From: Waddliaceae bacterium
GTDB lineage: Bacteria > Chlamydiota > Chlamydiia > Chlamydiales > SLFE01
Direction of reading: 5' to 3'
Length of the DNA: 14,198 nt
Assembly (NCBI GenBank): GCA_963783885.1
Contig: CAWAPJ010000035.1
Coordinates: 1-14,198 of the forward strand
Part shown: piece after piece, positions 2,124-6,201 of the stretch
Layout of the letters: the number at the start of each line of letters is the position of its first letter
Numbering within the stretch: the stretch's first letter is position 1
Program-made: the position numbers and the translations under genes
Notes under the pieces: model-generated
The model's input: the letters and a program-made list of their open reading frames with translations, nothing else
Database searches by the model: none
Told to the model about the DNA's origin: nothing

Positions 2124-2682
2124 TAAAAGTGTTATAATCCTTCAAATAAATAGGATCAACCAGAAAACGCTTCCAGTACAGTCTCGAAATAAAGAGAATA
2201 TTCATCAATTTGCCAGCCTGATTTCTCAACCATATTTTAAACGAGGAAGAAGGAACAAATGACTGTACAAACGAATCTGCGGTCTTTTGTTTTTTCTCGA
2301 CAAAGTCCATAAAAAAAATTTCAAAATTTTTGAAGCCCTCAAAATAATCTCCCTCAGCCTGATACAATTCCCCTGCCAGAACGTAGGCGCCGGCCATAGC
2401 CAAAGCCGCCCCCTGCCCTGAAAGCAACGACGGGCAAAAGGCCGCATCGCCCAGTAAGGCGACCCTTCCTTTCGACCAGGAGTTCATCTGAATCTGGCTG
2501 ACCGAGTCGAAGTAGAAATCCGTTGCCGAATCAAGCCGCTTTAGAAACTCTTCCGTTTCCCACTTTTCTCCTCTGAAATTTTCAATAACAACCCGTTTTT
2601 GAAAGTCGATGTCATCAAAATGATAATCCAATTTCTGCGCTCTTTTAAAAATAAAAAACACCGCAATCTTATTCTCTCTAAG

Positions 2683-2819
2683 ACCCTGATTGCTACCTAA
2701 ACTTGTTGTTAAAGTCTTTCGTTGGATTCAGATGCGTAGACTCGATTTGAAGGCAAGGGTAATCCCTTGCCGATAATCGAGGCTTAGCAGATGAATTCAA
2801 TGAAAGATTTTAACGACAA
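2683..2819 (+). repeat. Element A: one terminal repeat plus a ~117-nt imperfect hairpin, no second terminal repeat
   Basis: Arms 2703-2730 and 2792-2819 pair with 4 mismatches, all G·T. Apical stem-loop GGCAAGGG-TAAT-CCCTTGCC at 2752-2771. Confidence 0.9.
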
Positions 2820-2842
2820 TAGTCTCTATGATACTTCCTTAG

Positions 2843-2998
2843 ACCCTGATTGCTACCTAAACCTTAGCTAGAGCTTACACGAGTGCGCCAGATACAACTG
2901 TAGCGTCGACGGCAAGGGTAATCCCTTGCCGAGGCGCTACAGGCAGTAGATGGTGTGCTCGTGTAAGCTCTAGCTAAGGTTTAGGTAGCAATCAGGGT
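2843..2998 (+). mobile_element. Element B: complete 156-bp palindromic MITE
   Basis: 42-bp perfect arms at 2842-2883 and 2958-2999. Same apical stem-loop as A at 2911-2930. Confidence 0.92.
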
Positions 2999-3723
2999 CT
3001 AAGGGAATAGACGGCCGCCTGCTTATCAGGGATAGAGTACATTGAATAGTTGGATTTAATTTTGTCTCCCAGAAAATTATCCGTAGTGAAAGAAGCGACG
3101 TAATAGCCAAGATAGCGTTCATAATTGGAAAGGGGCCCGAAGGCCAGCGACCTGACTTTCGAGTGCAGACCATCAGCGCCTATGACCAGATCAAACGTTT
3201 GAGCTCCACGGTTTTTAAAGACGACGTCGACGCCCGCATCTCTTTGTGCAAGCGAGGCGATCTCATCGCCGAAGATGTAGTCAACCTGTCCCTTTGTCTT
3301 ATCATACAGCACTCTTGACAAATCGCTTCTTAAAAAACTAATGAGCCTCCGATCGATGACATCGAGGGCTTGTTTAATCTGTATTTTTCCTTTGACTTCG
3401 CCTTGGCCTCCTAGAAAAACGATCTCTTCAATCGAATAGCTCAGGGATTTAAGCTTGTCTAAAATACCCATTTTCTCTGCGGCATCATATCCTGCGCCCC
3501 AAAAATCAATGACATATCCCCCTTCCCTGATCTTTGGAAAACGCTCGACAACTGTCGGATTAAACCCATAGCGGCAAAGCCAATAAGCCAACGCCGGGCC
3601 AGCAATCCCCGCACCCGAAATGAGAATATTCTTGTTTTTCATGAAGCGTTAGCTCCTTTTAACGCCAGCCGCCACAGCATAACAAAAATTTAAAACAAGA
3701 ATCCGTATAACACAAGGCATAAC

Positions 3724-3739
3724 GACTCAATAGTCAGTC
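3724..3739. promoter_or_regulatory. Imperfect palindrome, possible repressor operator upstream of the monooxygenase
   Basis: GACTCAATAGTCAGTC is 12/16 self-complementary and overlaps a minus-strand TTGACT. No regulator gene is present in the window. Confidence 0.25.
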
Positions 3740-3810
3740 AAAGTTATCAGCAGATTTATGCTTTTTTGCAACGCACTCCTTTTTTACGATTTCCTGTTCA
3801 ATACAACTTA

Positions 3811-3857
3811 GGCCCTGATTGCTACCTAAACTTGTCGTTAAGGTAGCAATCAGGGCC
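3811..3857. mobile_element. Element C: 47-bp internally deleted derivative of the A/B family; may act as a terminator-like hairpin after the MFS gene
   Basis: GGCCCTGATTGCTACCTAAACTTGTCGTTAAGGTAGCAATCAGGGCC. Same terminal repeat as A/B and the start of the A-type arm (TTGTCGTTAA). Lies 36 nt past the MFS stop. Confidence 0.88.
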
Positions 3858-3893
3858 TAAGGGAATGGACATTTCTTTATTGCCAGGACAGCA

Positions 3894-5456
3894 TTACGGC
3901 CGCTGGCGTGTAGTGAACGGGATCTCTTTGAGGCTCAGTGCGATAATAATGCCGATGGCAAGTATGGGGACAAAGAGCAGAAAGATCGATGGCAACACGG
4001 TGCCGAATGCCTGAATGACCGCATCATGGATTGCGGGAGAAAGATTGGCGATGTCGTTTGGATCGATCACGGCACCGCCTTTGAGTTTGGCGAGCTGGCT
4101 CGGCAAGAGATGGTCGGCGAGCTGTGAGGCAAGCCGCGAAGTGAGGAATGTTCCGGCAAGGGCCACGCCGATCGCGCCGGAGAGTTGCCGGGCAAGGTTT
4201 ACACCTGATGTTGCAACACCGATCTGCGTGCGATGGACGGCATTTTGCGCAACTTGCGTCAGCACTGGCATGACCATACCGATACCGGCACCCAAGATCA
4301 CCATAAACACGCTCAAGACCAGGAACGTAGTTTGTGCGGTTATGGTCGAAAGCAGATACATGCCGATGGTCGCCATGATCGTACCGGTGACAAGGAAGGA
4401 TTTATAACGCCCCGTGCGGCTGATCGCTTGTCCGGTCGTGATAGCCGCGGCAAAGAGTCCGAGCGAAAGAGGCAGCATGAGCAGTCCCGAATCAGTCGGT
4501 GATGCGTTTTGTGCGATTTGCAAAAATGTCGGCAAGTACGTGAGCGATCCGAACAGCCCCAATCCGACTGTGATGCCAAGAAGCATACAGGTTGCGAGCG
4601 TGCGGTTGCGAAAAAGCGCCGTAGGGAAGATCGGATCGTGGGCGCGGCGCTCAGCCCATATGAAGAGTGAAAGCGATGCGATCATCGCCGCGCCGAGTCC
4701 CCATATTATGGCTGAATTCCACGGATATGCACTTCCGCCCCACGTGATGAAGAGGACAAGACAGATCATCGCGATACCAAGCGTGCTTGCACCGAGGTAA
4801 TCGATCTTGTGCATACCGCCCGGAGCGGGAGGAAGTCTCAAATAGTGCCATGCAGCATAGATCGCAAGAGCGCCGATCGGTATATTGATATAAAAGATCC
4901 ACCGCCAGCTGAAGTTGTCGATAAAGAATCCGCCGAGCGCGGGACCGAAGACGGTCGTAAGACCGAAGATCGGCATGAGATAGCCGAGATACTTTCCCCG
5001 ATCACGCGGCAAGATAACGTCACCGATCACCGAGAACGCGGTGACTATGAGGCCGCCGGCGCCGATGCCTTGCAATGCGCGGAAAATGATTAATTGAAAC
5101 ATCGATTGCGATACACCAGAGAGCACAGAGCCAATGAGAAATATCCCCACGGCATACATAAGGAGCTTCTTGCGGCCGTAGAGATCGCCGATCTTTCCAT
5201 ATATCGGCATCACGATGGTTTGCGCGAGCAGGTATGCGGTCACGAGCCACGAGATCTGATTGAGGCCATTGAGCTGTCCAGCGATCGTAGGCAGGGCGGT
5301 GGAGACAATCGTCTGATCGAGCGCAGCAAGCAGGATGCTCAATACCAACACCCAGATCACCGTGAGAATCTCGCGGTGCGAGTATACGCGGCCTTCTTCT
5401 ACGATGCTTTTTTGTCGATTTGTTGTTTCGTGTTCGGGTTGGGTGTTTTGCGACAT
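3894..5456 (-). CDS. DHA2 (EmrB/QacA-type, 14-TMS) MFS drug efflux transporter
   Basis: 520 aa with motif D1 LDQTIVSTALP, motif A GKIGDLYGRK, RALQGIGAG, GPALGG and WRWIFYINIPIG. Confidence 0.95.
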   Translation of the reverse strand: MSQNTQPEHETTNRQKSIVEEGRVYSHREILTVIWVLVLSILLAALDQTIVSTALPTIAGQLNGLNQISWLVTAYLLAQTIVMPIYGKIGDLYGRKKLLMYAVGIFLIGSVLSGVSQSMFQLIIFRALQGIGAGGLIVTAFSVIGDVILPRDRGKYLGYLMPIFGLTTVFGPALGGFFIDNFSWRWIFYINIPIGALAIYAAWHYLRLPPAPGGMHKIDYLGASTLGIAMICLVLFITWGGSAYPWNSAIIWGLGAAMIASLSLFIWAERRAHDPIFPTALFRNRTLATCMLLGITVGLGLFGSLTYLPTFLQIAQNASPTDSGLLMLPLSLGLFAAAITTGQAISRTGRYKSFLVTGTIMATIGMYLLSTITAQTTFLVLSVFMVILGAGIGMVMPVLTQVAQNAVHRTQIGVATSGVNLARQLSGAIGVALAGTFLTSRLASQLADHLLPSQLAKLKGGAVIDPNDIANLSPAIHDAVIQAFGTVLPSIFLLFVPILAIGIIIALSLKEIPFTTRQRP

Positions 5457-5526
5457 GAAAAAGTGCCTGCTTTTTACATACGTACAGTATCATCAATCCA
5501 ACCATAAGAGCAAGAAAAGCCGTTTA

Positions 5527-5689
5527 ACCCGTGATTGTGACCTAATCTGAGGCCAAGCGCTACAGATGGAGGTTAGATTTCGAAAATTTTGACGAGAGGC
5601 ATGTCTTAAGACATGCCGGAGGAGAAATTTATCGAAAGATGACCTTCAAGTATAGGTGATTGGCCTCAGATTAGGTCACAATCACGGGT
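5527..5689 (+). mobile_element. Element D: complete 163-bp palindromic MITE, second terminal-repeat subfamily
   Basis: Perfect arms at 5523-5556 and 5660-5693 including ACCCGTGATTGTGACCTAATCT. Apical stem-loop GGCATGTC-TTAA-GACATGCC at 5598-5617. Confidence 0.9.
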
Positions 5690-5690
5690 T

Positions 5691-5879
5691 AAAAGACAAC
5701 ATTCTCAAGAGACAAATTGAATGCTTTGTTCAGAAAGAAATAAAATTGAAACGGTTTTCAGTAGCATTGTGAGTCTGATGCCAAGATATATTCGTGCAAG
5801 AACGGAGTCCGGTTTTTGCTTGAAAGTTACATTTTTTATCCTGGCCTATATGGTAAACTTATCTTATCCATTGGGATAA
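5691..5879 (+). pseudogene. IS982-family DDE transposase, C-terminal remnant
   Basis: Manual translation gives KRQHSQETN*MLCSERNKIETVFSSIVSLMPRYIRARTESGFCLKVTFFILAYMVNLSYPLG*. This matches the IS982 pattern as I recall it (R..IETVFS, I.A.T..GF.LK...FILAY). One internal TGA; the 5' end is cut off at element D. Confidence 0.8.
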
Positions 5880-6022
5880 TCGTCCCCCTCAGTGATTTTA
5901 GCAATCCATCTGCAAACTTACCCTCCTCGGTAAGCTCTAAAGAGCTTACTCTTCGTCACGTAAGTTTGCAGATGGATTGCTAAAATCACTGAGGCGAACG
6001 AGATTAGGTTACAATCACGGGT
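5880..6022 (-). mobile_element. Element E: right end of the IS982-like element (long hairpin plus right terminal repeat)
   Basis: 35-bp perfect arms at 5887-5921 and 5960-5994. Apical GTAAGCTC-TAAA-GAGCTTAC. Terminal repeat 6001-6022 differs from D's by 1 nt. Starts immediately after the transposase stop. Confidence 0.85.
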
Positions 6023-6129
6023 TTAATATTTGGTTGATTGATTTGGTTATTTTTATAGCTATTTTTGTAGGTGAACAAAGATCCAAAAATGTTTTTAAAA
6101 CATTTCGTTTTCTGACCTATTAAAAAAAA

Positions 6130-6201
6130 CTCCGGATGTTGGATTCGAACCAACGACCAATGGATTAACAGTCCACTGCTCTACCGCTGAGCTAATCCGG
6201 A
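6130..6201 (-). tRNA. tRNA-Asn (GTT), CCA not encoded
   Basis: TCCGGATTAGCTCAGCGGTAGAGCAGTGGACTGTTAATCCATTGGTCGTTGGTTCGAATCCAACATCCGGAG folds as a cloverleaf. Anticodon at 6169-6167; T-loop GTTCGAATC. Confidence 0.98.

Follow-up and report, generated by a model that had tools for sequence, protein, structure and literature searches.

Positions 2683-6022 of contig CAWAPJ010000035.1 from a Waddliaceae bacterium (assembly GCA_963783885.1) carry five short repeat elements, named here A to E, within a stretch of 14,198 nucleotides (nt) that was analysed at full length and is referred to below as the window. The window very probably holds rearranged copies, together with MITEs (miniature inverted-repeat transposable elements), of two lineages of one clade of IS982-family insertion sequences (IS), associated with the Planctomycetes-Verrucomicrobia-Chlamydiae (PVC) bacteria, in which each end of the transposon holds a terminal repeat and a hairpin module of ~115 nt. 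A preliminary description of the window had recognised the related termini and rod-like hairpins and proposed that IS982-like elements carry a functional structured module at their right end, which would also spread in the form of stand-alone MITEs. The module does follow the transposase stop codon in intact copies, as then proposed, but it is not confined to the right end, since a homologous and mirrored module is present at the left end as well. The label “functional” can be inferred from three features of the sequences, namely conservation, covariation and strand bias.

The complete element

The terminus shared by A and B is present in many copies across the source genome (2.16 Mb, 46 contigs, G+C 44.8%). 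When termini were paired, 10 pairs were found 1142-1146 bp apart, 4 at 1038-1041, 2 at 1091-1092 and 11 at 154-157, with additional full-size copies being interrupted by contig ends. The full IS has 1,145 bp (the reference numbering 1-1147 counts one flanking base per side), ends in ACCCTG...CAGGGT and holds a single frame of 279 codons. Its left rod (~22-138) lies upstream of the ATG (~position 181), while the right rod (~1012-1126) overlaps the stop codon, and the same 20-nt apex caps both. The expectation that intact copies would carry the rod after the transposase stop codon was borne out by the 10 complete copies in this genome and by complete relatives elsewhere. The transposase matches NF033520 with 152.8 bits (cut-off 130), as well as the Pfam families DDE_Tnp_1_3 and DDE_Tnp_1, and its residues D106, D187 and E235, invariant across 24 aligned homologues, form a putative DDE triad. 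The element thus has the 5'-AC ends, the size of ~0.85-1.3 kb, the single frame and the target duplication of 2-10 bp that characterise the IS982 family (AC-beginning repeats, size and single frame as given in the parts of PMC7335449 used here). A 5-bp target duplication of the form CNNAG flanks 7 of the 8 IS copies inspected.

Just downstream of the left rod, the alignment columns show a conserved TAnnnT box that can be read as a putative -10 box. Because this box sits 3' of the rod, the transposase mRNA probably starts beyond it. No conserved promoter was found upstream of either rod in the alignments of 18 left and 24 right modules, and a promoter scan revealed no consensus promoter at either IS end. 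A second small hairpin, located between the left rod and the ATG (L001:345-385, with the same place in L005, L006, L007 and L021), brings the putative -10 region into pairing with both the ribosome-binding site and the start codon. It is present in the five left ends that were folded, which came from six loci (one element being represented by two copies), and would silence read-through transcripts while sparing those initiated at the element's own promoter. At the opposite end, the basal stem of the right rod includes the stop codon and the final few codons of the transposase (L001:1205-1225; the inner arm of the right-module alignment), meaning that the outer arm covaries with coding sequence.

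Fold and covariation of the end modules

Homologue scans of genome and metagenome collections yielded 92 loci, from which modules were cut out together with their terminal repeat and oriented tip inward, giving 73 distinct sequences, which clustering reduced to 45 by discarding any that exceeded 88% identity to one already retained. Fourteen apex matches whose locus held no terminal repeat were left out, and L040 (truncated), L064 and L057 (odd placement) were removed before alignment, so that 18 left and 24 right modules (42 in total) were aligned.

At each end, the ~20-bp terminal inverted repeat is directly followed by the ~115-nt imperfect hairpin. Read from the tip, the module starts with a ~26-bp stem of free sequence, followed by a tandem G.A mismatch in which AGAT stands opposite AGAT, then a short stem with an internal loop leading to a second variable stem, a purine-rich asymmetric loop and, finally, a sequence-conserved stem of 8 bp (GGCAAGGG in the main lineage) with a loop of 4-6 nt at its end. 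Both modules of one element are homologous and are mirrored like the terminal repeats, although left and right modules hold their own type-specific motifs across the clade. Stem sequence is free, whereas conservation is seen in the apex stem, at the AGAT/AGAT site and in the loops; at the apex itself, the sequence of the stem is conserved while that of the closing loop varies. AGAT faces AGAT in 14/18 left and 22/24 right modules. The site has been turned into perfect pairs in window element E and in the right module of L054. The motif AGATG occurs twice per module, in direct orientation and ~60 bp apart.

The test of covariation that had been suggested for the rods gave a strong signal, above both shuffled and slid controls. 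In the left modules (n=18), 48 pairs are predicted by RNAalifold, and 41 show compensatory changes; 94.9% of the cells are paired, against 71.6% in shuffled alignments and 37-49% when the arms are slid by 1-3 columns, and the covariation score is 0.720 versus 0.244, a value reached by 0/500 shuffles. The right modules (n=24) have 39 predicted pairs, 32 with compensatory changes, 94.2% of cells paired (74.2% shuffled, 37-50% slid) and a score of 0.615 versus 0.210, again reached by 0/500 shuffles.

Two other readings of the conserved parts were rejected. The apex does not mimic the transposon tip (AAGGGT versus CAGGGT), because the tip varies (CTGCGT, CTGGGT, CCAGGT) while the apex remains constant. 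The loop beside the apex was compared with the kink-turn consensus, from which its sizes (4x3 or 3x2) deviate.

Strand polarity

The two strands of a module are not equivalent. On the strand read from the tip inward, G.T pairs prevail over A.C by 88 to 11 in the left modules and by 79 to 22 in the right ones, and the tandem mismatch is G.A, where the complement would have C.T. The same bias is found when no consensus structure is assumed, the tip-inward strand being the more stable in 18/18 left and 24/24 right modules. Mean energies of this strand and of its complement are -76 and -59 kcal/mol (left) and -77 and -62 kcal/mol (right) with RNA parameters, and -40 and -35 (left) and -41 and -36 kcal/mol (right) with DNA parameters. 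The favoured strands are opposite at the two IS ends.

A cruciform or a duplex site treats both strands equally and, therefore, neither accounts for this bias, while a bias arising from transposase transcription would fall on the wrong strand of the right end. The polarity thus points to a single-stranded fold as the selected form, rather than to a cruciform or a plain duplex site. The selected polarity matches the non-transferred DNA strand of either end, and equally an RNA read in from outside. On the sense strand of the transposase, a terminator scan flags TTGTATCT together with the right-rod upper stem that precedes it; this candidate intrinsic terminator was set aside, as the opposite strand is the one selected. 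No T-run follows the rods on the tip-inward strand in the module alignments.

Elements in the window

Repeat finding and direct reading agree with the preliminary description as to five elements with related termini, which are arranged as follows:

2678..2682, no strand: left CTAAG target duplication (5 bp) of the A+B composite, read from the sequence; the same bases follow B
2683..2842, plus strand: element A, nt 1-160 of the 1,145-bp IS982-family element (left end, cut after CTTAG)
2683-2702, part of A: left inverted repeat
~2703-2822, part of A: left rod, apex 2752-2771; A also includes the start of the putative promoter region
2843..2998, plus strand: element B, 156-bp palindromic MITE (repeat, right-end-type rod, repeat)
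2999..3003, no strand: right CTAAG target duplication of the A+B composite
3812..3856, no strand: element C, 45-bp mini-palindrome (two terminal repeats with 5 bases between them, no rod)
5524..5526: TTA, possible 3-bp target duplication of the D..E composite, with the other copy at 6023-6025
5527..5689, plus strand: element D, 163-bp palindromic unit of the second IS982 lineage (repeat, rod, repeat)
5721..5879, plus strand: C-terminal fragment of an IS982-family transposase, 52 codons, the first ~230 codons missing
5880..6022, minus strand: element E, right-end module of the second lineage (rod 5880-6001, right inverted repeat 6002-6022)

The four rods fold far better than dinucleotide-shuffled versions of themselves, with z-scores of -14.0 (A), -14.6 (B), -9.3 (D) and -16.3 (E, minus strand) and 0/200 shuffles as good in each case. 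Their apexes were correctly read at the outset as GGCAAGGG/TAAT in A and B, GGCATGTC/TTAA in D and GTAAGCTC/TTTA on the minus strand of E, and A and B indeed have terminus and apex in common while their stems are unrelated. All four favour the tip-inward strand. Fold energies on the plus and minus strands are -69.1 and -46.0 kcal/mol for A, -89.2 and -72.8 for B, and -56.8 and -41.8 for D; for E, the minus strand is preferred (-87.9 versus -76.7 kcal/mol). A covariance model seeded with main-lineage modules only behaves in the same way, matching A with 138.9 bits on the plus and 45.5 on the minus strand, and B with 140.4 and 84.3 bits, respectively. The second-lineage modules, which were not in the seed, are also matched: D with 37.4 bits (E-value 4.3e-7) on the plus and 21.3 bits on the minus strand, and E with 72.3 bits (E-value 1.3e-14) on the minus and 36.9 bits on the plus strand.

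Element A is identical (100%) to positions 1-161 of the IS in reference numbering and represents its left end without a right terminus; it is not, for this reason, one of the stand-alone MITEs that had been proposed, while B is. There are 4 copies resembling B elsewhere in the genome. B is merged with the right end of the IS copy to which A belongs, and both would make up one rearranged IS copy flanked by CTAAG on either side; that A stops right after CTTAG agrees with the preferred target. In the simplest history, the IS would have inserted into a gene for an FAD-dependent monooxygenase, a B-type MITE would have landed within it, and recombination between this MITE and the identical right-end module would have deleted the transposase gene. 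The two parts of the monooxygenase gene, split by the composite, lie at 2116-2661 and 2992-3642 on the minus strand, the N-terminal part matching positions 4-166 of Pfam FAD_binding_3 and the C-terminal part positions 273-319.

Elements D and E would likewise belong to one rearranged copy of the second lineage (5527-6022, TTA-flanked), apparently the same kind of recombination product as A+B. The inverted-repeat arms of D (34 nt) are 100% complementary, and its polarity resembles that of a left-end module. The placement of the E rod between an IS982 transposase stop codon and the right repeat holds, the frame at 5721-5879 matching positions 199-241 of the 243 in NCBIfam NF033520 (E-value 7.8e-8). 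In E, the AGAT/AGAT site (5905-5916 / 5965-5976) is perfectly paired, while a copy from the same genus (L098) keeps the mismatch, which suggests that one arm of E was recopied from the other. No intact copies of the D/E lineage were found in the source genome or in the same-genus genome G379, which holds fragments only; among the intact relatives encountered, L121 is the nearest. In a different Chlamydiae genome (L027:1469-2008), a main-lineage element contains a nested deletion derivative of ~540 bp whose termini are of the D/E type.

Element C starts with G where the IS has A. Comparable repeat-only units occur in the source genome at C29:111556-111594, C17:70365-70401 and C6:56148-56190, and 10 extra bases past the repeat (GGGAATrGAC) are common to C and to the flank after B. 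Such mini-palindromes may be footprints, minimal MITEs or the product of rod deletion. To the right of the D..E composite, at a distance of 108 bp from its end, the window holds a tRNA-Asn (GTT) gene (6130-6201, minus strand).

MITEs and loss of the rod

The 11 units of 156-159 bp in the source genome have the features of MITEs, being non-coding, below ~300 bp and multi-copy, with target duplications and with terminal repeats that an autonomous element of this genome also carries; A is excluded by its missing right terminus. Four are left-module palindromes, five are right-module palindromes and two are chimeras joined at the apex, which correspond to the IS minus everything between both apexes. 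A perfect 5-bp duplication flanks 6/11. MITEs of this kind arise as a repeat, one module and a second repeat, or through recombination between both apexes. The rod may also be lost from the larger element: six genome copies carry right-rod deletions with five different junctions, no exact junction being found in two copies and two being alike. Rods that are deleted often and yet kept across deep divergence indicate selection for their retention.

Distribution of the modules

A protein search returned 268 homologues; the best 120 of these 268 are 54-77% identical (the source genome's own protein excepted) and lie mostly on contigs of 1-1.5 kb. The 92 loci include Chlamydiae genomes, among them Parachlamydiaceae bacterium HS-T3, and a Verrucomicrobiae genome with many copies, and 53/92 have the apex motif. 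Both mirrored rods are kept in related elements from Chlamydiae and from one Verrucomicrobiae genome with transposases 49-77% identical. In the complete relatives L005, L006, L007/L010 and L021 (transposases 54-68% identical), they stand at the same distances from the repeats and the frame, and the distant intact elements L118, L125 and L121, in spite of other terminal repeats and apexes, have both modules, mirrored and with AGAT opposite AGAT. Searching with the E fragment revealed relatives in 53/400 genomes of the phylum. Among the 30 loci listed from this search, 27 could be assessed by eye, ~18 having a rod between stop and right repeat and ~9 lacking it; alternative apexes at some of these loci are GGCAAGAG, GCCAAGGTG, GCAAAGGG, GTTAAGGTG and GCTTGACTT.

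The covariance model finds 49 full-length modules (at least 114 bits) in the source genome, and modules in 27/150 sampled genomes of the phylum and 22/90 genera, with none in 26 genomes of the small-genome family f4. Since the same-genus genome has only fragments of both IS types, the burst in the source genome is recent.

The rods are absent from the outgroup elements of Pseudanabaena (929 bp), Thermus (897 bp) and Lactococcus (IS982B, 1003 bp), which share the repeat core and have 48-92 nt before the frame and 12-62 nt after it. No such rod was seen either in metagenome elements with ~35% identical transposases. Table 1 of PMC7335449 gives, for most of the 70 catalogued IS982 members, ~50-125 nt before the frame and ~5-25 nt after it, which, judging from these coordinates, leaves no room for two 115-nt rods; the parts of that source used here mention no hairpin, palindrome or MITE at IS982 ends. 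Taken together, the rod-less outgroups and most catalogued members indicate that the modules are a derived trait of one clade rather than of the family at large: canonical members lack them, while the PVC-associated clade, found so far in Chlamydiae and one Verrucomicrobiae genome, has them.

Possible roles of the module

The module may tentatively be regarded as a cis-acting part of the transposon end that would act as folded single-stranded DNA of the non-transferred strand. This strand, with its 5' end at the tip, would become accessible once a replication fork or strand-displacing step has moved into the element. The rod would then place the apex stem beside the terminal repeat, where the transposase or a host protein could read this conserved stem as an ordinary B-form duplex. 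In one version of the model, each strand of the element would have one correctly oriented module, serving as an assembly or priming signal on a single-stranded intermediate. The lean towards folded DNA comes from the fact that the modules mirror each other and abut the terminal repeats, that no conserved promoter precedes the rods, that the -10-like box follows the left rod, and that the sequence of the apex stem is conserved while that of the loop is not, which would be more in line with groove read-out on B-form DNA than on an RNA helix.

A number of points weigh against a role as folded DNA. No DDE transposase is known to require a folded single strand, and the 279-aa transposase has no extra domain when compared with rod-less relatives of 276-296 aa. 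Rod-less copies with intact frames and target duplications exist, and thus the fold may not be strictly required in cis; in addition, two apex-joined MITE copies are unable to form the rod, meaning that the fold may be dispensable for mobilisation in trans. The conserved G.T-rich stretches by the tandem G.A (right-module pairs 52-55) resemble RNA design more than DNA, and the strand advantage is greater with RNA than with DNA parameters. The degenerate right module L122 is an exception to the strand rule, its complement having the better fold (-57.7 kcal/mol versus -52.1 on the tip-inward strand). As the module sequences are mutually related, the counts of alignment cells given above, for pairing as for G.T and A.C, overstate the number of independent events. 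Finally, a published survey (PMC3971601, in the part of it used here) reports no bias in the replication orientation of IS982 elements, a bias that is not to be expected of a mirror-symmetric element anyway.

It is more doubtful that this clade of DDE transposons actually needs a folded single strand at each end, with the hairpin on the tip-5' strand being recognised by the transposase or by a host replication or repair factor. If true, IS982-type transposition would be coupled to replication or to a single-stranded intermediate, and a logic of single-strand folding so far known only for HUH transposons, integron cassettes and filamentous-phage integration would be extended to DDE transposons.

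That the module works as RNA is possible, albeit rather unlikely. Inward read-through transcripts from flanking host genes on either side would fold into the rod, which would be a processing or stabilising signal, for example for a double-strand-specific RNase. Cleavage would separate the read-through RNA from the transposase frame at the left end and from antisense RNA at the right end, and the host mRNA would keep a 3' hairpin that protects it. At both ends, inward transcription has the same polarity as the selected strand, and the many G.U pairs, the tandem G.U beside tandem G.A, the purine-rich internal loops and the larger strand advantage with RNA energy parameters would all be in keeping with such a role. 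Moreover, a hairpin that pairs with the ribosome-binding site is a classical means by which IS elements block read-through expression, and the one found before the ATG suggests that read-through evidently matters to this element. However, the rods are neither preceded by a conserved promoter nor, on the tip-inward strand, followed by a U-tract, and a processing hairpin does not need an 8-bp apex stem conserved in sequence across transposases ~50% identical. A search of sequencing runs retrieved a single DNA-type run, with a small share of the query words, and no RNA run.

There is little likelihood that the rods are functionless for the element, that is, self-maintaining palindromes with arms kept complementary by hairpin-templated repair or by exchange with MITEs. 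Recombination between MITEs and IS ends does occur and is the best reading of the composites A+B and D..E, and the conversion of the G.A site into perfect pairs in window element E and in the right module of L054 is what templated repair would produce. Between transposase identity and module identity there is no significant correlation (rho 0.21 and 0.15, for 45 pairs drawn from 10 elements), but this comparison is uninformative, as the identities of the 120-nt hairpins, taken globally, saturate at 0.6-0.8. On the other hand, templated repair should remove mismatches, yet the non-Watson-Crick features are conserved across lineages and the type-specific left and right motifs are kept across the clade. 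Such a process would also leave the one-strand bias of 42/42 modules unexplained and, given how frequently rods are deleted, neutral ones should be gone. Equally improbable is a module read as ordinary duplex DNA, in which the apex palindrome (a perfect 8-bp inverted repeat with conserved halves 4-6 bp apart) would be the site of a dimeric protein and the two AGATG, in direct orientation ~60 bp apart, direct-repeat sites of a subterminal array like those of Mu, Tn7 and P elements, because such a reading would leave unexplained both the ~40 pairs that covary in stems whose sequence is free and the excess of G.T over A.C on one of two strands that are equivalent in a duplex.

Comparison with known systems

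With the IS982 members of ISfinder, such as ISPasp1-3 of Parachlamydia and IS982B of Lactococcus, the element described here shares the transposase family, the AC-start repeat, the short duplication and the single frame, and the repeat core ACCCnnnTTGCTA is common to it and to the members from Lactococcus, Thermus and Pseudanabaena. The question of whether the rods belong to a described family was answered in the negative: in Rfam release 15 only the tRNA reaches its gathering score, the rods giving sub-threshold matches to generic hairpins (microRNA precursors, e.g., 47.8 bits against a gathering score of 90), and the titles and abstracts retrieved on IS982 in connection with hairpins, MITEs, subterminal ends and Verrucomicrobia, and on chlamydial MITEs, report no such module. 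The module is, therefore, apparently undescribed.

The subterminal hairpins of IS608, from the IS200/IS605 family, are the closest working analogy, as they too are found at both ends, fold in a strand-specific manner and have conserved stem mismatches. In IS608 the hairpins are on one strand, the transposase is an HUH tyrosine enzyme, and there are neither terminal inverted repeats nor a target duplication. Here, in contrast, mirrored hairpins lie on opposite strands beside inverted repeats, the enzyme is of the DDE type and the duplication has 5 bp, so that the likeness is one of logic and not of membership.

Regarding the MITEs, MITECca01/02 of Cardinium (~240 bp), which derive from the IS982-family ISCca4, are also many-copy, transposase-less IS982 derivatives with parental terminal repeats in an intracellular bacterium; the part of their description used here reports no fold and no counterpart inside the parent (PMC9769881), whereas the interior of the MITEs described above is the end module of the parent. 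The Correia elements of Neisseria, the RUP elements of pneumococcus and the Rickettsia palindromic elements are similar in size (100-170 bp), rod-like fold and high copy number. Their fold results mainly from terminal-repeat pairing or is not tied to an autonomous parent, unlike the present one, which is an internal module that is also found twice, and mirrored, in an autonomous element. Integron attC sites and the single-strand origins and initiation signals of plasmids resemble the modules in that structure is kept while sequence drifts, one strand is functional and unpaired bases are conserved, and the ssiA/ssiB signals of RSF1010 even form a mirror pair on opposite strands. The IS, however, has no gene for a tyrosine recombinase, a primase or rolling-circle replication, and any single-stranded intermediate would be hypothetical.

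Implications for IS982 transposition

The origin of one kind of rod-shaped bacterial MITE is explained by these results, since such MITEs correspond to the end modules of an autonomous element, and their polarity relative to the transposon tip is fixed by the parent IS, which studies of MITEs alone cannot do. IS982 members activate antibiotic-resistance genes and shape the genomes of endosymbionts. A mirrored, covarying and strand-specific fold beside the terminal repeats provides a handle on their transposition mechanism, and the strand-specific hairpins hint at a single-stranded step in IS982-type transposition.

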